From: a virus
Taxonomy: Duplodnaviria > Heunggongvirae > Uroviricota > Caudoviricetes
IMG/VR virus record: IMGVR_UViG_2778261544_000008
Strand: one strand, 5' to 3'
Length of the DNA: 11,300 nt
Below the pieces are notes generated by a model that worked only from the letters and a program-made list of their open reading frames with translations, made no database searches and was not told the origin of the DNA. The translations under genes and the position numbers were made by a program. How positions within the stretch are numbered: position 1 is the stretch's first letter; each line of letters opens with the position of its first letter. Of this stretch, positions 637-11,300 are shown piece by piece.

Positions 637-1908
637 CTATTCTTTCCAGTCAATCCCATCCAGTAAGCACCCTGCCTCATATTGCCCCACCACCCAGTCA
701 AGGTTACAGGACTCATAGAACGCGAGGCGATTATACTGAGGCTCGTTTTTTACCAGGCCACGAACGGAACCACGCTGCCAGTACAGACACAGATTGGCAA
801 GAGGTGTGATCAATACAGCATTGTCCGGGAAAAATGGAACGGTCACAGCCGGGAGATTCCCCAGAACGGGATTTTTAATGATTTCCTCGTTAAGCAAAAT
901 TTCCTGATTCATCTGCGATGGATCAAGACGGTTTATCAAAGGCCATTGCTTACGGACCAGCGTATTGTGACTGCATACGGCCACAATGCCTTCCTGCCAC
1001 TGTTCATCAATCATGGATTGCCAGGCATCCAGAACGAGCGCATCTATCGTATGGTGTGTACCGCGTGTATTACTTTTCGGTGATGAAACAGAAAGGCCGC
1101 TGATAACCCTTCCCGCCGCTTCATTTCGAAACTTCTGCAACCAACCCACGCCGCAATCGTCACGCCCCGGATATGTTTCAGGGTCAGATTCGGCGGCATA
1201 ATGTGTGCCGTTAAAACCAATCTGAATTAAATCCAGCCATTTCCGGCGTTCAAAAGCGGCCCGCGCACTTCCTTCAAGGCCGTTTGCGGATGCGTGAGCA
1301 TCGGCATTGTCGTAGCTCAACGCAAAATCAAAATTAACCTGCTCGCAGCGGTAGCCCCTTGAAACCAGTGAATGCGCCTGTAGTGGCGAACGGCGCTCGT
1401 GAGGTGGCGATGTGCGTGCCAACGGCCCCGAAGCGTCTACCAGCACAACCCGACCTGATATATCCGTAACAGGCACGGGAGTTATTTCAGCAAGGAAATT
1501 TGCCTGCCATCCACTGGCAAGCGTTGCACTCTGGCGGGGAACGGGTTCAACTTCTGACGAATAGCGCGCAGTGTCACCGGAAAAGTGCAAATCCTTCGGA
1601 TGTTTTCCGGTTATCGACTCGATAGCGCAATTGAAAACCATCTGAGCCTGTTGATTTCGTTGTGATACAACAGAATCAGCAGTGCAATTATAACGCTCAA
1701 TGCCGTCGTTATTACCCCCACCGCTTGCAGTATGCAGGGTGTGAAGCTCAAGCTCACGCTCCAGTTTTTGATATTCATTGTCCAGCGCGCGACGCGTCTC
1801 ATCGCTTATGCTTGCTGTGTTTGCTTTCAGGCGATTCCGGGACATTAATCCCCTGAGTCGGCTCACTATATCAGCGCCGTGCAAATGTGGAGTATTCAGA
1901 CCGCCCAT
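637..1908 (-). CDS. Major capsid protein, P2 gpN-like; start codon uncertain
   Basis: Several blocks match my recollection of P2 gpN: CEQVNFDF, IGFNG, VGWLQKFRNEAAGRVIS, IDALVLDA, LGNLPAVTVPFFPDNAVLITPLANL, YESCNLDWVVGQYEAGCL. The homologous region begins near the ATG at 1641-1639. The frame is open up to 2085. An ATG at 1908-1906 overlaps the upstream ORF's stop as TAATG. Confidence 0.75.
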   Translation of the reverse strand: MGGLNTPHLHGADIVSRLRGLMSRNRLKANTASISDETRRALDNEYQKLERELELHTLHTASGGGNNDGIERYNCTADSVVSQRNQQAQMVFNCAIESITGKHPKDLHFSGDTARYSSEVEPVPRQSATLASGWQANFLAEITPVPVTDISGRVVLVDASGPLARTSPPHERRSPLQAHSLVSRGYRCEQVNFDFALSYDNADAHASANGLEGSARAAFERRKWLDLIQIGFNGTHYAAESDPETYPGRDDCGVGWLQKFRNEAAGRVISGLSVSSPKSNTRGTHHTIDALVLDAWQSMIDEQWQEGIVAVCSHNTLVRKQWPLINRLDPSQMNQEILLNEEIIKNPVLGNLPAVTVPFFPDNAVLITPLANLCLYWQRGSVRGLVKNEPQYNRLAFYESCNLDWVVGQYEAGCLLDGIDWKE

Positions 1909-2618
1909 TACTGCCACCCCCGGCAGAGTTCTCTGCCCTCCGCAAGGTCGCGCATTTTTTCTGGATTCTGTCGCGCCGCGCTCCATTGTACAGGTGAAGG
2001 GGCGTTCCTGATTGCGCGGCTTACCGAATCCGGGAGTTTCTCCGGGCAATAACGCAGCGGGCTGGAGGTGTCGCTTTCGGTATCGTTAATCCGGCCGCGA
2101 ATCATCCCGACACTTTCAGCAGTATCTGTCGCTTTCAGTGTTTCGCATATTTTCTTTTCTGCGTTATACAGCGGCTGGCCAAGCAGCTCACATAAACCAC
2201 GAATCAATAACAGAGCAGGGGTCAGCTCGTTAATCAGTTCGGGAAGTGCTTTTGCAAATATCTCTGCCCGCAACTTATTATCAATGCTTTCGTAAGCACA
2301 ACCAGCCTCTGCCGCGTTATAACGACACTCCAGTAGCCTGATGCGCGCCTCATCATGCAGCACCCGCAGACGCTCAAGATTTTCTCGCGCCACACCCGCC
2401 TGAATGGATAATTTCGCGGAGGCTTCCGTTTTTACGCCCAGCGCAGACAGGATTGAGTTCTGCCAGTCACGATCGAGAGATTCCAGCTCCCCTTTCGTCT
2501 GTTCGATAGTTGCTTCCAGATTGGTGATTAATGATTCCTGTTCACTGAGTTTTGCCATGGCTGCATCAAACTGTGCTTTACATACCTGATGTTCGGCGCT
2601 TGCCTGAGTTATATCCAT
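1908..2618 (-). CDS. Helical or coiled-coil protein, candidate capsid scaffold (Sid/gpO-like role)
   Basis: 236-aa ORF with a good SD (CAGGAGcaaatATG). The N-terminal two thirds are heptad-like and helical. It lies immediately upstream of, and overlaps, the capsid gene. Its last ~45 codons overlap the capsid-frame ORF and look low-complexity. Confidence 0.5.
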   Translation of the reverse strand: MDITQASAEHQVCKAQFDAAMAKLSEQESLITNLEATIEQTKGELESLDRDWQNSILSALGVKTEASAKLSIQAGVARENLERLRVLHDEARIRLLECRYNAAEAGCAYESIDNKLRAEIFAKALPELINELTPALLLIRGLCELLGQPLYNAEKKICETLKATDTAESVGMIRGRINDTESDTSSPLRYCPEKLPDSVSRAIRNAPSPVQWSAARQNPEKMRDLAEGRELCRGWQ

Positions 2619-3643: not shown

Positions 3644-3862
3644 GAACAATAGCGTCAAAAAGAGTGCTTTTGAGAAATTTTTTATGGCAACTGCGCCGCG
3701 TGTATTACGTTTTTTACCATCCCCGCCGCGCATGTACATGCTTCATTTTTCTGCCAAACAACAGGGCAACTCCCCGTGACTGGCAGCCCCAAAAAATCAA
3801 TGATTGATATTGCATTTTTGTTAGAGGTTAGACCAGTTGTTTTGAGGCTCTGCCTCATAATC

Positions 3863-4185
3863 CGGTGGGGGGTGCGCAAAGCGGTTACAACGGTTACAAC
3901 AGTCAAAAACACCACTTAACAGCATGATTTTAATGGATATTGTTTGTAACCGCTTTGCGGTTACACTGCGGTTACAACGGTTACAGGTTTCAGAAAGTTA
4001 TTTATTATCAATCAGTTAAAAACTTAACTTGTAACCGCCTGTAACCTAACAAAACGGTTACATGTAACCGCGTTGTAACCGCTTTTGTAACTCATCGGAC
4101 CAGCTGCAATGTATTGATATATAATATAAAAATGAGTAATTTTAAATTTGTAACCGTTGTAACCGCTTTGCGCAACCCCCCCCGG
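3863..4185. repeat. Iteron array (TGTAACCG/CGGTTACA) with flanking inverted repeat; putative replication origin
   Basis: At least 13 full copies of the 8-mer in ~285 bp. The left half is mostly CGGTTACA, the right half mostly TGTAACCG, around an AT-rich centre. Outer arms 3874-3899 and 4148-4173 are exact reverse complements (26 bp). Embedded palindromes GTAACCGCtttGCGGTTAC and CGGTTACATGTAACCG. An AT-rich stretch lies at 4100-4150. Confidence 0.55.
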
Positions 4186-4380
4186 ACTTTAGCGCGACCC
4201 TTTAAAATGTTAATTAAACTAACTTATTCCGTCTCACTTTCATTAACTCTCTGTAATTGAAATGTGCCTCGCCACTGTTTGACCCTTTCTGATAATCAGG
4301 GGAGGGAGAGCAAAAAAAATTGATGGCGACACCGCTGCAATATGGCCACCATTGCATTGCTGTTACCGTTGGTTCTGGCC

Positions 4381-4438: not shown

Positions 4439-5440
4439 TTACTCTGCTGGTTCTTTTTGTTCAGTGAATGCTATGTTAGCTATCGGGTTAAACCTCATGG
4501 CATCTGCCAGATAGTCGGGAGAAAAATGCGCATAAGTCATCGTTTGCTGAATAGTGGCATGGCCCAGAATCCGTTGCAGGGTAACGATGTTTCCCCCGTT
4601 CATCATGAAATGCGTGGCGAACGTATGACGCATCACATGAGTCGCCTGCCCTTTTGGCAAATCAGGCTTCACCTCCTGGAGGATCTCGCGAAACCGGAGA
4701 TAATCGACCTCGTACAGCGGCCCAGTTCGGCAGGTTTTAATCAGCGAGAGCACGGCATCAGACACCGGAACCGAACGGGACTTCCCGTTCTTGGTGTTGA
4801 AGAACGTCACGCGATTACCGACGATATGCTCCCCGCGTAATTCCGTCGCCTCACCCCACCGCGCCCCCGTGGAGAGACACAGAATGGCGACACGACGCGC
4901 ATCACCTTCGAGTCGCTCAAGAAGCCGCTCAATCTCATCATCAGAAAGAAAGGCCATCTCTGTATTCTGAATTTTTAGCTTACGTATACTGCGCACGGGG
5001 TTCGGGTTGTGAAAGACCCCTGCTTCAATCAACACCGTGAACATGGTAGACAGAACGCATAAGTCACGATTAATACTGGACGGCATTAATCCGGCCTGTA
5101 ATTTCTCTGACCGATACTCAAGCATAAATTTTCGCGTCATCTGGTTGGCGCGCGGATCTCCCATTTCACGAATCACTTTCTCCAGCCGGATCCTGTAGGT
5201 ATCGCCGTAAGCCTGATTACACCCGTCAAGCATCCACCATGTATCAAGCAACTCTGATAATCGCCGCCGATCAGCAGGTTTAGCTAGCCATGGGTTATTA
5301 TGGAAATTCTGCAAAACATATTGTTCGAACTTCTCTGCACTTCCTTTCCTGGTAAAAATTTTACGTATCCGTTTGCCGTATGTCCCTTGCGGCCTGATAT
5401 CTAGCAACCATCTTCCATCATCCATCTTTCTGATCGACAT
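4439..5440 (-). CDS. int: Tyrosine recombinase, P2-type integrase
   Basis: Strong similarity along the whole length to my recollection of P2 Int (MSIRKMDDGRWLLDIRPQG..., ILCLSTGARWGEA, ATHVMRHTFATHF, LQRILGHATIQQTMTYAHF, giving the catalytic R, H-x-x-R and Y). Start taken at ATG 5440 (SD AAGGAG upstream), not the upstream in-frame ATG at 5476. Confidence 0.9.
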   Translation of the reverse strand: MSIRKMDDGRWLLDIRPQGTYGKRIRKIFTRKGSAEKFEQYVLQNFHNNPWLAKPADRRRLSELLDTWWMLDGCNQAYGDTYRIRLEKVIREMGDPRANQMTRKFMLEYRSEKLQAGLMPSSINRDLCVLSTMFTVLIEAGVFHNPNPVRSIRKLKIQNTEMAFLSDDEIERLLERLEGDARRVAILCLSTGARWGEATELRGEHIVGNRVTFFNTKNGKSRSVPVSDAVLSLIKTCRTGPLYEVDYLRFREILQEVKPDLPKGQATHVMRHTFATHFMMNGGNIVTLQRILGHATIQQTMTYAHFSPDYLADAMRFNPIANIAFTEQKEPAE

Positions 5441-5442
5441 AC

Positions 5443-8112
5443 TTAAGATCTCTCCTTGTAACTGAATATCCGGCATTTCAGCACTTCCGGCTCTCTGGCC
5501 TCGGCTACTCCTTTTCCGGCGTTTGCCTGTCTGGACACCTCACTACGAATGGTTTTGCGGCCTGTCAAAGGTCGGGAACGCCCGGCTCCGAGCAGCTCAA
5601 TCATTTCGCGATCTGTTCTGATCTCCACGCGGTGAATGGCGGCAGCCTGTGCCAGTTGCGGAATGCTGATAGCAATCCCTTCGCGGCATCCCTTGCCGTA
5701 GTGGTTTACGCCGTATTTTGTTATGCCGTCCAGGAAGTCGAACGCCTCCCAGAACTCCGTCACTTCCGGCAAGTCAGCCGCCGCCGCTTTAACCTGCGCT
5801 GTTGCCATTTGTTCCAGTTCCAGACATGTGGCATCAAGCCATTCATCCGGGATATCAATAACGCATTTCAGCGCCCTGACCAGCGCGATAAGTTGTGCGT
5901 GATTTTTGGCGATGCGGGGATGGCGAATATTTTCGCATCCGCAAAGGCGTTCCGTTTCAGCTGGCGACACTTCCAGGAACGTTTGCATAATCGCCCGTTC
6001 CTGACTTACCGCCCGGTGAATAAAACCCGATACCTTCTCGACGGGGTAGAGTTCCAGCCGTCTCGCCGCCAGTCGGGTATCTGGTGAATGGCGTTTTTTA
6101 TCGGTGTATATGCGTATCAGGCGCTCAATAATTGCCGGTGAGGCGTTTACCCGCGCATTCTGTGCAATCACGATAGCGCCCTTAAAATCCGGATCATAGG
6201 TGTTGTTATTGTTGGCCTTAACACCACGAACACCGATACCGCCGCCGTTATAGAGGCTTTTCAGGTTATCGAAATCAAACGCACCTCTTTTTTGCGCATT
6301 GTCTCCCCGGTCTGCTTCAATCAGAACAACAGGCAATCCGGCGACCTGTCCAAAGGTGCGCTTCCAGCCCGCTTCTGATCCTTTGGTTGGATCAACGCCT
6401 TCGTAGTTGTCACGACCGCACAGCCGCCAGCAAAAATCAATCAATGTTGATTTACCCGTTCCGGGTTCCCCAGTGACTTCAAGGAAAGGGAAGGATTCTT
6501 CTTTATCCCGGATTTGTTCACTGAACAGCGACCCCAGCCAGAAAGCCAGGGTAATAATTCCCTTTTCGCCAAAAGCCAGCCAGAGATCTTCTACCCATGA
6601 CGTTGTAAATTCATCCGTTTTTTTGTAGTTAATCTGTAATGTGGGTTTTTCGCTTAATGGTTTTGCGTTTATGCCATCAATTTCAAAATAATCTTCGTCA
6701 TTGATTTCATAAGTTTTACCCTTGTAAACAGCAATATCATTAAACAGCCATGCCCCAATGGCCTTGTTGTATCCGATAAAATCCTGACCAATAACCTCTT
6801 TTATTGCAGGAAGGTCATTTTTTATTAATGCGTCAAGCTGCGTAGTCGTTCCGGTATAAATGCCGCCTTTTGCTACGTGCAACAGACGTTTTTTAAATTC
6901 AGATGCGGATGTTAATTGCCCTGATGTAAAGGTGTTTTTCACCGTAGCACCATCCGGGAATGTAATGCGGAAGTAATACCATGCTTCATCCGTATCATTG
7001 TTTCGAATGTAATAAAGCGGCACTGGGTTACAGTTTGCGATTTCTTTTACAGCGCCGGATTCCTTGAGTGCAATTTTGCGCGCTTCATCTTCGTCAACAT
7101 TTCGCTCATTAATGACACGCTCAACAGCCTTCATATGGCGCTCAATATCCAGCTTGAACCAGAAAACACGGTTATCAAAGGGAAAATGAAATTCCTTTCG
7201 CTCACGAAAGGAAAACATTATTAGTGCCTTATCTCGTGGAGATTTCGCCAGCAATAAATCACCGTAATAACGGTATCTTTTCACATCATGGCCACGCAGC
7301 TTTCCGGCGACGTGTAAATCATTCCAGTCGCGTTTATTGTTGTTTTTCCCTGGTAACGCCGCTGCCGTTCTCCAGCCGTCTTCGGCGCTGCGTTCTGCAT
7401 GTTTTTTCGCGTAACGCTCACCTGCACGCCCGTTATCCAGCGCCCACACGATAACCGGACGGGGATTATCCCCGCACAGCTTCGCCAGCTCTTCCAGCGC
7501 CTTATCAGGGTAGTTCACGGCAGACATGACAGAAACGGCCGCAATGCCATTCTGGTTAAGACTGATGGCATCAAAGATACCCTCACAAATCCAGATTTCT
7601 TTGGCCTTGCTTAAATCTGCTCCTGGATAAGCCCACCACAGCCCCTTGTAGCTGCCGGAAAAATTCGCCTTGCGTCCGAAGCGTTCCGGGCGATCTATGA
7701 TTCGCTCCCACCACACACCGTCAGCCAGCGTAAAACGCACAGTAGCGGCCTGTTCGCCGCTTTCCTTGTCCTGGTATCGCTCCTGGGTAAATGCTCCCCT
7801 CAGTGGCTCCACAGCAATATTGCGTGCTTCCTGAAGATAAGCTGCCGCCGCTGCGTATGGTTCATCTTTCGTACTGATATAGCGATCTGACCATGATGAA
7901 AACACATCCGGGTAAAGTTCTTTAGTCAGCAGGTCTACACCGCATTTATTTTCACGCCCGCAGTGTACGATGTACGGCCTTTCAAGGCTGGTAAACAACT
8001 CTTTCTTTCCACATTGCGGACAAACACCATACCGGAGGTAGTTATTTTCTTCTTTAAAGTTGTAATCACGAATAAGACGGTTAATAATCTCTTTTCTGGT
8101 GTTATGTTTCAT
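5443..8112 (-). CDS. Primase-helicase, P4 alpha-like (zinc ribbon + TOPRIM primase + P-loop helicase)
   Basis: N-terminal zinc-binding CPQCGKK...HCGRENKC, a TOPRIM-like segment EIWICEGIFDAISL...WALDNGRAG, and Walker A VTGEPGTGKST with a downstream VVLIEAD. ATG at 8112 is preferred; an in-frame GTG at 8130 is possible. The stop is 2 nt before the int start. Confidence 0.9.
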   Translation of the reverse strand: MKHNTRKEIINRLIRDYNFKEENNYLRYGVCPQCGKKELFTSLERPYIVHCGRENKCGVDLLTKELYPDVFSSWSDRYISTKDEPYAAAAAYLQEARNIAVEPLRGAFTQERYQDKESGEQAATVRFTLADGVWWERIIDRPERFGRKANFSGSYKGLWWAYPGADLSKAKEIWICEGIFDAISLNQNGIAAVSVMSAVNYPDKALEELAKLCGDNPRPVIVWALDNGRAGERYAKKHAERSAEDGWRTAAALPGKNNNKRDWNDLHVAGKLRGHDVKRYRYYGDLLLAKSPRDKALIMFSFRERKEFHFPFDNRVFWFKLDIERHMKAVERVINERNVDEDEARKIALKESGAVKEIANCNPVPLYYIRNNDTDEAWYYFRITFPDGATVKNTFTSGQLTSASEFKKRLLHVAKGGIYTGTTTQLDALIKNDLPAIKEVIGQDFIGYNKAIGAWLFNDIAVYKGKTYEINDEDYFEIDGINAKPLSEKPTLQINYKKTDEFTTSWVEDLWLAFGEKGIITLAFWLGSLFSEQIRDKEESFPFLEVTGEPGTGKSTLIDFCWRLCGRDNYEGVDPTKGSEAGWKRTFGQVAGLPVVLIEADRGDNAQKRGAFDFDNLKSLYNGGGIGVRGVKANNNNTYDPDFKGAIVIAQNARVNASPAIIERLIRIYTDKKRHSPDTRLAARRLELYPVEKVSGFIHRAVSQERAIMQTFLEVSPAETERLCGCENIRHPRIAKNHAQLIALVRALKCVIDIPDEWLDATCLELEQMATAQVKAAAADLPEVTEFWEAFDFLDGITKYGVNHYGKGCREGIAISIPQLAQAAAIHRVEIRTDREMIELLGAGRSRPLTGRKTIRSEVSRQANAGKGVAEAREPEVLKCRIFSYKERS

Positions 8113-8124
8113 ATATAAATCCCC

Positions 8125-8149
8125 CCCCACTGCACCTTTTGCAGTGGGG
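8125..8149. promoter_or_regulatory. Perfect 9-bp stem-loop just upstream of the primase start; attenuator or terminator-like
   Basis: CCCCACTGC-acctttt-GCAGTGGGG. On the plus strand it is followed by TTTTTATTAATT; on the minus strand it precedes the primase SD. It lies in the 43-nt gap between the 101-aa ORF and the primase gene. Confidence 0.4.
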
Positions 8150-8155
8150 TTTTTA

Positions 8156-8461
8156 TTAATTACTCGTTACTTCTTGTTCCCGGGCAATCCCTGCTGCTTC
8201 AGCCTGACGCCATGAAAAAATGCCGCCAGAAAGATGCATACCTGATTTTATTGATTGTAATTCCCGATAAATAATATTAGACAGAGATGTAATATCTTTA
8301 TTGGTAATTTCTGCACCCGCTCCGCAGCTTCTTTCATCAAACATGATAGACATAATGTTGACGAGATTAATTACATCCGTGAGATCTTCTTTTGCATCCT
8401 CTGTAAAAAAACCAACATACTCTTTATGTAAAAGATTTGCGTAATTCTGATTTTCAGACAT
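8156..8461 (-). CDS. Hypothetical protein, 101 aa, AT-rich
   Basis: ORF with SD GGGGAG and 5-nt spacing. Most of the gene is visibly more AT-rich than the flanking genes. No recognisable motif. Confidence 0.5.
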   Translation of the reverse strand: MSENQNYANLLHKEYVGFFTEDAKEDLTDVINLVNIMSIMFDERSCGAGAEITNKDITSLSNIIYRELQSIKSGMHLSGGIFSWRQAEAAGIAREQEVTSN

Positions 8462-8528
8462 AAAAACTCCCCGACCCGTTAAGGTCGAAATATAAATTTA
8501 ATTCAGTTATAAGTTGGTAATTCGGTAA

Positions 8529-8747
8529 TCAGGCGGAAAGCTGCGTCACCTTCAACGCTTTGAAATGTGTCATTCCCAGCTCTTCCAGCCCTTCGGCTGC
8601 GCGGCGTATGGCTTCGCCCGGCCCCGTTCCGTATACCGTTGCGTGTGCATGTTTGGTTAACCCACGTTTATTAACGGCATAACCCAACACAAAGAAACGT
8701 TTTTCACCACTGCCATTATTTTTACGGGATATTGAACGGCTTTTCAT
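8529..8747 (-). CDS. Hypothetical small protein, 72 aa
   Basis: ORF whose ATG overlaps the upstream ORF's stop (ATGA-type coupling). Basic N-terminus. Part of a compact small-gene block upstream of the primase gene. Confidence 0.45.
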   Translation of the reverse strand: MKSRSISRKNNGSGEKRFFVLGYAVNKRGLTKHAHATVYGTGPGEAIRRAAEGLEELGMTHFKALKVTQLSA

Positions 8748-8932
8748 TTCTTCACCTTTACCACTGATGCTGTGAGTTCTTCTTCTGGCAATTGATATTT
8801 CGGCGCAATTTCTTCCGTATACCTGATAGCGTCCCTTGCCGCTTTTCCTTTTGATTTATATTTACGTATCGTGTGGAAGTTTTCTTCCTCTCCTGTTACC
8901 ACATTACGCAATTTAATATGAATATCGTACAT
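8744..8932 (-). CDS. Hypothetical small protein, 62 aa
   Basis: Start chosen at ATG 8932, preceded by a strong SD GGAGGGG. The upstream in-frame start at 8962 lacks an SD. Stop overlaps the next ORF. Confidence 0.5.
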   Translation of the reverse strand: MYDIHIKLRNVVTGEEENFHTIRKYKSKGKAARDAIRYTEEIAPKYQLPEEELTASVVKVKK

Positions 8933-10247: not shown

Positions 10248-11300
10248 TTACTGAGATGATGCCTTAATCCATCTTGATATAGTACTTTTATCAAAGCGCA
10301 TATTGAGTCCTGCCTCTCTTGCTTCCGCGGTCAATATATCAGCAAGTTTTACCGGATTGTTTTCGAGTTCTTTATAATGAATAACAAGCATCGCACGAAA
10401 AAAATCCTTCATTGTTTTAGATAATCGTTCTATATTGTTTTTATTGGTGCATATATCTTTCTCCCCATCCTCAGAACTTAATATATTGTTACCCGCACGC
10501 AAATATAAAGTATCTGCCAATGGACTAACATAATCTTTTCTTAACTCGCTATTGGAGTTTGTAGCATTTTGTATTTTTAAAAAATCATTCTTTAAGATAT
10601 ATAAATCACCAATATCAAAAGAAACATCCTCAGTAACAATTACTCCTATATGTATATCAACGTCAGAAGCAATTATAATATTGCTATTAATTATTCGGTT
10701 GGCTTTAAACTTCTTATTAAAATCATAGTTGGCAAAAAAACTTCCCCCCAAAGCGAAAATGCCGCCTATTTCAACAAAATACTTATGGTATTTTTCTTGA
10801 ATACCTTTAAATACTGGTGGTACAACTGCCACACCTCTTTCATCCGTTGCTATTCGATATACACTATATATGTGATAATTTTCCCCATAATATAACCCCC
10901 TGTTATAATAATTTAACAAAGCAAATGCAGTATCAATTGCTATGTCACCAAATTTGGGCGCTACATATGAATGGCTTAGAGATTCACACATTGAATCAAA
11001 TATAATTCTCGACTTGTTTTTTATATAATTAAAACCATGGTGTTCTGCCGCCCTTTCTGAAATGGCATCAAGGTCAGATAACCGTGATTTACATGGTTCT
11101 GAATCCATAAACTTACGCAGACAATCGAAATTAACCACATCTTTTTCATCTGGGATATTTAATACTCCATATGCAGATTCAATTTTTATACAAATACGAA
11201 TGCAGCCTGTCACAGCCCAATGAATAAGATCATCAATATCGCAGTCTAATAACTTTGCCGCGCGCTCAATAGGATAGTAATCTCTTAGTGGTAACGTCAT
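10248..11300 (-). CDS. Hypothetical protein, 350 aa, strongly AT-rich cargo gene with HTH-like termini
   Basis: Uninterrupted 1053-nt ORF whose ATG is the last three bases of the window. Composition is far more AT-rich than the neighbouring alpA and primase genes. The N-terminus (IERAAKLLDCDIDDLIHWAVTG) and C-terminus (LADILTAEAREAGLNMRFDKSTISRWIK) look HTH-like. The central domain is unrecognised. Confidence 0.65.
   Translation of the reverse strand: MTLPLRDYYPIERAAKLLDCDIDDLIHWAVTGCIRICIKIESAYGVLNIPDEKDVVNFDCLRKFMDSEPCKSRLSDLDAISERAAEHHGFNYIKNKSRIIFDSMCESLSHSYVAPKFGDIAIDTAFALLNYYNRGLYYGENYHIYSVYRIATDERGVAVVPPVFKGIQEKYHKYFVEIGGIFALGGSFFANYDFNKKFKANRIINSNIIIASDVDIHIGVIVTEDVSFDIGDLYILKNDFLKIQNATNSNSELRKDYVSPLADTLYLRAGNNILSSEDGEKDICTNKNNIERLSKTMKDFFRAMLVIHYKELENNPVKLADILTAEAREAGLNMRFDKSTISRWIKASSQ

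Follow-up and report, generated by a model that had tools for sequence, protein, structure and literature searches.

The hairpin between a small gene, ORF101, and the primase gene of a phage satellite, together with the T-run beside it, is a conserved intrinsic terminator that reads against the operon in which it lies. We studied it in an 11,300-nucleotide stretch of a Caudoviricetes record (IMG/VR IMGVR_UViG_2778261544_000008), here called the window. ORF101, the last small gene before the primase gene, is a real protein gene under purifying selection, and its alleles are ancient and have been exchanged as cassettes between nearly identical backbones. Judged from promoter-like and complementary sequences, the most likely mechanism would be a short antisense RNA limiting primase translation, and we give it an even chance of being correct. 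We are just as evenly divided on the explanation as a whole, which joins a real, cassette-swapped ORF101 acting as a binding factor to an antisense terminator and an antisense RNA.

The satellite and its early genes

By megablast, the region from 7900 to 8800 was matched in 66 of 5,426 complete E. coli genomes, and the match was chromosomal every time. In the near-identical E. coli P15-25 the element is an island between hpt and gcd. The first part of this island encodes a tyrosine integrase, an AT-rich 350-aa gene, an alpA-type regulator, an Icd/Ash-like protein and three small ORFs. These are followed by the 101-aa ORF, which RefSeq annotates as a hypothetical protein, an 889-aa Toprim primase-helicase and a second "phage integrase". 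An ogr/delta zinc-finger gene, a P2-family capsid gene and mazEF make up the last part. All genes around the ORF101 locus lie on the minus strand, with the early genes running from alpA through the icd/ash-like gene, the three small ORFs, ORF101 and the primase gene to the second integrase gene. The features of the primase leader are collected in Table 1.

Table 1. Known and predicted features in and around the primase leader, numbered from the first letter of the window.
Feature	Position	Strand	Remarks
Primase-helicase gene, 889 aa	5443-8112	minus	Toprim and DUF5906 P-loop domain; presumed target of the leader hairpin or antisense RNA
Predicted sigma-70-like promoter (TTGTAA, 17-nt spacer, AATAAT)	8060-8088	+	in primase codons 9-18; consensus-level prediction
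Predicted antisense RNA, about 61 nt	8095-8155	+	ends approximate; 5' single-stranded part, then terminator hairpin
Primase SD, GGGG	8121-8124	minus	within a G8 homopolymer formed with the last four G of the stem
Perfect hairpin, 10 bp, 5-nt loop CCTTT	8125-8149		on the + strand, terminator stem; on the minus strand, stem-loop abutting the primase SD
T-run, TTTTT, then ATT	8150-8154	+	completes the antisense terminator; on the gene strand, A-run before the hairpin
ORF101 (X), 101 aa, ATG start	8156-8461	minus	final small gene of the early operon, next to the primase gene on its upstream side
Second conserved hairpin	8469-8490	minus	ORF101 leader; 3' arm enters the ORF101 SD (GGGGAG), followed by UUUUUAUG

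The P4-type core genes present are the integrase gene (in L001), alpA, the icd/ash-like gene, the ogr/delta gene and the gene for the Toprim primase-helicase, the last related only faintly to P4 alpha. No psu, sid, cnr or epsilon gene was recognised in the window's satellite, and a P2-family capsid gene is found in place of psu and sid. Unlike P4, the window's lineage thus has neither cnr nor a recognisable epsilon gene. The element does not carry all seven core genes of a canonical P4-like element. As its core set is incomplete, we regard it, on gene content, as a P4-related satellite and not as a canonical member of the P4 group.

The capsid gene lies within 637-2618 (minus strand), and its product is a homologue of the P2-family major capsid protein (E = 3e-72). 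The element itself may supply this satellite's capsid protein. An uncharacterised 236-aa protein with only weak matches to coiled-coil families precedes the capsid homologue; relatives in Salmonella, and others in E. coli, have these two after alpA instead. At the hpt-side end of the island, positions 1-593 of the + strand encode a mazE/mazF-type toxin-antitoxin pair that is also found in the Salmonella relative L011. Beside the integrase gene, an AT-rich gene of at least 350 aa (10248-11300, minus strand; 33.6% GC, GC3 25.6%) had no match in any library, PADLOC included, and is a candidate cargo or defence gene in a known satellite hotspot. GC content is low in the middle of the primase gene too (36-42% at 6450-7050), but there the elements share 83-100% identity and do not diverge as they do in the X region.

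The ORF101 region was also considered as a replication origin. This was rejected, with 13 copies of the iteron CGGTTACAA clustering only at 3882-4165. The copies, in both orientations, occupy AT-rich intergenic sequence that lies downstream of the second integrase gene, and a 39-nt inverted repeat (3861-3899 and 4148-4186, 95% complementary) frames them. Replication of the satellite probably starts at 3861-4186, which would make this stretch the counterpart of P4 ori/crr.

ORF101, a core gene with exchanged alleles

ORF101 is AT-rich beside its neighbours, as the sequence-only reading had observed, at 36.6% GC against about 49-50%. Its GC3 is 27.5%. The primase gene has 48.8% GC and 49.1% GC3, and the 72-aa gene upstream has 50.2% and 47.9%. 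With the AT-rich gene at 10248-11300 left out, only 1.5% of 306-nt segments are equally AT-rich. The earlier statement that the protein has no recognisable domain also stands, no library having matched it: the search of Pfam, PHROGs, NCBIfam, PADLOC and PDB sequences returned nothing. ORF101 thus escapes all current family libraries.

That reading had further described ORF101 as inserted upstream of the primase gene and had proposed a comparison of this slot across related elements. The slot was filled in every relative examined. An X-family ORF stands directly before the primase gene in the four E. coli genomes read (of the 66 with primase matches), and each of the 11 IMG/VR satellites whose primase identity is 75% or more has an X homologue in the slot; these homologues are 94-119 aa long. 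In ten further E. coli and Salmonella loci, an X-family ORF likewise adjoins the primase gene on its upstream side. Homologues of 21-30% identity stand directly upstream of a primase gene in a metagenome contig, Erwinia tracheiphila and Salmonella. In Serratia, a homologue of similar identity is separated from the primase gene by one epsilon-like gene. Since the slot is filled in all relatives and homologues of about 25% identity occur in other genera, ORF101 is not an insertion and is instead a fixed core gene, its slot lying at the end of the early operon. The earlier reading had held that universal conservation of the ORF, with uniform composition, would speak against it, and the presence half of that statement is what the comparison found.

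X is a small orphan family confined to Enterobacterales. It forms 55 clusters at 90% identity, 14 representative clusters were found among 1.84 billion proteins, and all members are unnamed. Across lineages, the GC content of X is 34-42% and that of the primase gene 47-56%. The more distant satellites carry unrelated small genes in the slot, and these are AT-rich as well. AT-richness is thus a trait of the X family and of any occupant of the slot, not a sign of recent arrival.

In the alignment and its entropy profile, two conserved blocks of ORF101 (aa 14-32 and 59-84) flank a hypervariable centre (aa 33-58). The blocks contain the motifs YxGFFTE...DVIN and SLxNIxYRELxxIKSGMHxSGGIFSW. The protein is acidic, with a pI of 4.6 (4.4-5.8 in the family). 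Two AlphaFold runs gave a helical AF2 model of low confidence (pLDDT 66), and Foldseek found no match to it with E < 1 in PDB or BFVD.

Selection on ORF101 was examined in 13-14 E. coli elements. Its dN/dS of about 0.3 is the evidence for purifying selection. Its dS is about 1.1 as compared with 0.12-0.19 in the flanks, namely the two upstream genes and the 5' end of the primase gene. The gene has therefore had a history unlike that of its flanks, as its composition had suggested to the earlier reader. In a sliding comparison, nucleotide identity to the window is mostly 83-100% over the primase gene and the upstream operon, and a drop to 47-60% is confined to X and the second integrase gene. 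ETEC1732 and JML285 have the same backbone with an X allele only 33% identical to that of the window. As the X alleles are much older than their flanks, they must have been swapped as cassettes. The slot is in this sense a natural experiment, with ancient alleles shuffled between near-identical backbones as would be expected of a specificity or arms-race gene. X alleles range from 31 to 100% identity while the primase stays at 88-98%, and the two do not co-vary (Spearman 0.17). X also precedes two essentially unrelated families of primase-helicase, even at one E. coli site.

At the E. coli gcd site, L114-L116 share the upstream backbone and have the replicase module replaced by an unrelated primase-helicase (Zn-ribbon/Toprim_3/DUF927, about 21% identity to that of the window), with the junction at the X and hairpin region. 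The triad of X, primase and second integrase is retained even where the primase family has been swapped. The second integrase gene (4439-5440, minus strand; Int_N and Phage_integrase domains) lies 2 nt downstream of the primase gene and has about 83% DNA identity to the integrases of P2-like phages, seen in about 300 E. coli genomes. Its protein is only 45-60% identical among otherwise near-identical satellites, and P15-25 has two places that match it. The linkage between X alleles and second-integrase alleles looked strong at 11 loci and was imperfect at 23.

P4 is the textbook satellite, and both its replication control by Cnr and its CI RNA immunity have been well studied. Like Cnr (ORF106, DUF5375), ORF101 has about 100 aa, and its gene immediately precedes that of a primase-helicase in the early (left) operon. 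The two have no detectable homology, and ORF101 is AT-rich and allelically hypervariable. It had no Pfam match even at E = 10, DUF5375 included. P4 also differs from the window in having 11 nt between the cnr stop and the alpha start, with no hairpin. P4 epsilon and the PF25738 "Derepression" proteins resemble ORF101 in being small proteins of the same operon. They are not homologous to X, and both genes co-exist in the Serratia relatives; hhalign gave ORF101 a probability of 0.1-0.2% with P4 epsilon and a Serratia PF25738 protein, and Pfam gave no match. ORF101 was accordingly rejected as a homologue of P4 Cnr, epsilon or ORF151, being similar to none of them. In L036, L039 and L070, a protein that by eye is like the Serratia Derepression protein occupies the slot just before the hairpin and primase gene. 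The cnr family fills the region before alpha in 90% of canonical P4-like elements (PMC8628076). With cnr/ORF106 directly before alpha and epsilon-like genes in related satellites, the sequence-only reading was right that ORF101 sits where P4 carries its accessory genes.

Our best guess is that ORF101 is a small acidic binding protein specific for its partner. The conserved helices might contact a partner that stays the same and the hypervariable loop one that varies, perhaps a protein of the helper phage. One form of this would make ORF101 a helper-specificity factor, an anti-repressor or other binder of a helper protein, with alleles diverse because they match different P2-like helpers. The exchange of ancient alleles between conserved flanks, the hypervariable centre between conserved blocks and the acidity of the whole family are consistent with such a role. 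So are the epsilon-like Derepression genes in the slot of related satellites, none of which is found in the window, and the partial allelic linkage between X and the second integrase, itself similar to the integrases of P2-like phages. That linkage is imperfect and could reflect ancestry alone. The protein has no similarity to epsilon, and the Serratia relatives have X and a Derepression gene together, so we consider this role possible but on balance unlikely. A functional analogue of Cnr, that is, a negative regulator of replication acting through the primase-helicase or its binding to the origin, would account for the position that ORF101 shares with cnr directly upstream of the replicase. 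It would also fit the finding that X loci have no DUF5375 gene and cnr loci (P4, L105) no X. Here the sequences are dissimilar (hhalign probability 0.3%). X and the primase do not co-vary and X stands upstream of two unrelated primase families, which speaks indirectly against a specific contact with the primase. We think the analogy unlikely to hold, although it and the helper-specific role are the two leading candidates for ORF101.

A terminator that reads against the operon

The hairpin lies between the ORF101 stop codon (8156-8158) and the primase SD GGGG (8121-8124), beyond which is the primase start ATG (8110-8112). Its arms on the + strand are CCCCACTGCA (8125-8134) and TGCAGTGGGG (8140-8149). 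The sequence-only reading had reported a perfect stem of 9 bp in this position; it is indeed perfect, but it has 10 pairs. Seven of these are GC pairs, and the free energy is -20.1 kcal/mol (z = -3.9 as compared with shuffles). This is the sole perfect hairpin of at least 10 bp in the 11.3-kb window, where shuffled sequences predict 0.09. Along the gene strand, AAAAA comes first, then the stem-loop, GGGG (the SD), AUUUAUAU and AUG.

The G-run at 8121-8128, a C-run on the + strand, is G9 in L001 and L015, where it was read directly, and in other relatives differs in length or is broken up (GGGGAGGG, GGGGTGGAG). The window and its closest genome (99.6% identical) differ in length by one base, which is explained by an extra G here. 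Variation in the length of the run might adjust the strength or spacing of the SD, or may be a sequencing artefact.

As part of the primase leader the hairpin is conserved, and at least six unrelated sequence versions preserve its structure. An alternative stem, CCCCCTGTA/TACAGGGGG, is found on the same E. coli backbone. Other lineages have, in the same place, stems of GCGCCG/CGGCGC, GCGCCC/GGGCGC, TGCAC/GTGCA or GCCGCCA/TGGCGGC, and homologues in HP1-like phages have an imperfect GCACACAA stem at the leader position. The versions were folded separately; MAFFT did not bring different versions into register. Leaving out the GCCGCCA and GCACACAA stems, all nine versions fold significantly well (z = -3.3 to -3.9). 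In Serratia the hairpin remains beside the primase gene, after the intervening epsilon-like gene, and so belongs to the primase leader and not to X. No hairpin was found in the leader of P4 or of the cnr-bearing relative. The hairpin is functional and very probably concerns primase expression.

On the + strand the stem is followed by TTTTTATT, the tail of an antisense terminator. On the gene strand it is followed by GGGGAUUU, which is not a U-tract. At all 11 loci compared, the 8 nt after the GC core contain 6-7 T in the antisense direction and 0-4 T in the sense direction. A tolerant scan of 80 primase leaders from the window's primase family found an antisense-oriented terminator-like site in 40, about 30 of them strong and adjoining the SD, and a sense-oriented site in none of the 80. 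Since the structure is conserved, an A-run precedes it and no U-tract follows it on the gene strand, it is an intrinsic terminator of the opposite strand and not an attenuator. The earlier suggestion that the stem could attenuate primase expression fails on the same counts where a classical intrinsic attenuator is meant. A sense-strand transcriptional attenuator reducing read-through from ORF101 into the primase gene would fit a stem that is stable, GC-rich and placed between the two genes, and the three U that follow the stem in GCGCCG-type relatives might permit weak termination. With no proximal U after the window's stem, and with sense tails and leaders as just described, we judge it highly improbable.

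The same layout is present outside the satellites. L038-L057 are HP1-like phage contigs of 6-38 kb from IMG/VR with a primase about 56% identical to that of the window, and their leader consists of an A-run, the imperfect hairpin and an SD. In two of the three contigs read, the hairpin follows a gene that by eye resembles a TraR/DksA-type zinc finger. The antisense terminator is therefore not specific to satellites.

ORF101 has a conserved leader hairpin of its own (Table 1). Across versions its variants run from A-U to G-U to G-C pairs, so this hairpin acts in the sense RNA, and the one in the primase leader could therefore be a sense-RNA element too.

A candidate antisense RNA over the primase start

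Seven lineages of the window's primase family have a promoter-like site at the position of the predicted antisense promoter or at most 3 nt away, and in several of them the TATAAT is perfect. The site of the Serratia relative L013 is TGGTAA-17-TATAAT and ends 3 nt further into the primase gene. DUF927-type primases that follow X have promoter-like sites of their own, TTGCTA or TTGACT with a 16-nt spacer, and in two of these lineages the -35 box falls in different reading frames. All lineages that have the hairpin show candidate sites of consensus level, confounded with coding constraint. P4 and the cnr-bearing relative, both hairpin-free, have no antisense promoter-like site.

When the opening 110 nt of the primase gene are scored for antisense promoters, the best values are 9.6-11.9, against a sense-strand mean of 6.9; the scores are consensus matches to an approximate matrix of our own making. 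Per lineage the empirical fraction is 0.018-0.086, which places the scores among the highest 2-9% of background windows. Combining the lineages gives a Fisher p of 8e-6, which is optimistic because the lineages are related. Protein constraint could account for the window-type -10 box, since its reverse complement is a pair of conserved Ile codons. In the HP1-like L038-L057, the only antisense candidate is an extended -10 (TGnTATGAT) of modest score that ends at +6 of the primase gene. These phages have imperfect hairpins with only this extended -10, which weakens the argument from the co-occurrence of promoter and hairpin. On the sense strand, no convincing promoter was found for ORF101 or for the primase gene, and as there is no strong one between them both genes are on one transcript.

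Given its predicted ends, the antisense RNA would span both the SD (8121-8124) and the ATG (8110-8112), its 5' part being complementary to primase codons 1-6, the AUG and the SD. In ten lineages the predicted RNA is 52-65 nt long although promoter and hairpin shift relative to the AUG. Complementarity to the SD is found in these predicted RNAs; the AUG is covered as well only in the window type and in one DUF927-type lineage. Rfam searches of both strands matched no family. Another origin considered for the + strand terminator, as the end of a small antisense protein gene (ORF 7963-8118), was rejected, no antisense frame being conserved.

In the mechanism that we favour, the promoter-like site in the first primase codons and the hairpin would together define a cis-antisense RNA of about 60 nt. 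By pairing with the primase SD and AUG this RNA would hold down primase translation, and replication or copy number of the satellite would be limited until the operon is strongly induced. Should the antisense terminator mark a genuine regulatory RNA, the replicase of a whole branch of satellites and related phages would be under antisense control in the style of plasmids.

A sense-RNA role for the hairpin is a serious rival to this mechanism. The hairpin might be a processing or stability element of the mRNA, with RNase E cutting in the AU-rich stretch just upstream. It would then shield either the ORF101 message at its 3' end or, as a 5' stem-loop, the primase message, and in both cases the cistrons would differ in level. 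We view this reading as a minority possibility. It would draw on the single transcript, on a hairpin that abuts the SD in many lineages and on the ORF101 leader, which shares the layout of AU-rich stretch, hairpin, SD and AUG and has G-U intermediates that indicate structure in the sense RNA. It does not explain why an A-run abuts the stem in nearly every lineage (one version is AAGAATAA), with 6-7 T opposite, or why the opposite asymmetry is absent from every leader. An RNase E site requires A/U-richness and not a tract of terminator grade. The terminator could instead be a plain insulator that stops stray transcription from the primase gene or beyond from entering the early operon, its RNA having no regulatory part. 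The orientation of the terminator, which is the best-supported fact, suits this, and the promoter support is at consensus level only and weaker in the HP1-like group. The terminator is, on the other hand, never more than a few tens of nucleotides away from the primase SD, with promoter-like sites a constant 52-65 nt away in unrelated primase families. This close placement and constant length fit a defined short RNA better than a generic barrier, and we think a mere insulator very unlikely.

The predicted RNA can be set beside several short antisense RNAs. In the immI region of P22, arc and ant form a similar arrangement of a small upstream gene, an intercistronic terminator hairpin and a downstream gene. 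The P22 sar RNA, of about 68 nt, starts in the first codons of the downstream gene, covers its RBS and ends between the cistrons. OOP of lambda begins next to where replication gene O starts and extends back in the direction of the gene upstream of it. In IncB/I and ColE2 plasmids, RNAI is a short cis-encoded antisense RNA to the leader or initiation region of rep, ended by a terminator, and controls copy number. In published listings, sar appears as an inhibitor of anti-repression, CopA/CopT as an antisense system and OOP as a 77-nt antisense RNA (PMC5415839).

The likeness to sar is one of layout. The target in the window is a primase-helicase and not an antirepressor, the setting is the replicase leader of a satellite and of HP1-like phages, and the predicted RNA has no sequence relation to sar. 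Satellites of this P4-related lineage, and HP1-like phages that share the replicase, might control their primase-helicase by an undescribed sar-like RNA of about 60 nt in place of a Cnr-type protein. ORF101 might at the same time be a determinant of specificity, with ancient alleles, partly linked to the helper-like second integrase, that fit the satellite to particular P2-like helpers. We consider this combination quite unlikely. With the plasmid countertranscripts (R1 CopA/CopT, IncB/I RNAI and ColE2 RNAI) the predicted RNA shares a terminator whose complement forms a hairpin in the target leader. It differs in that no leader peptide or translational coupling is evident in the window. CopA folds into two stems, as compared with one hairpin and a single-stranded tail predicted here, and the window had no Rfam match. 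OOP overlaps and targets the 3' end of cII, while the window's predicted RNA stops before the ORF101 stop codon and overlaps the primase start only.
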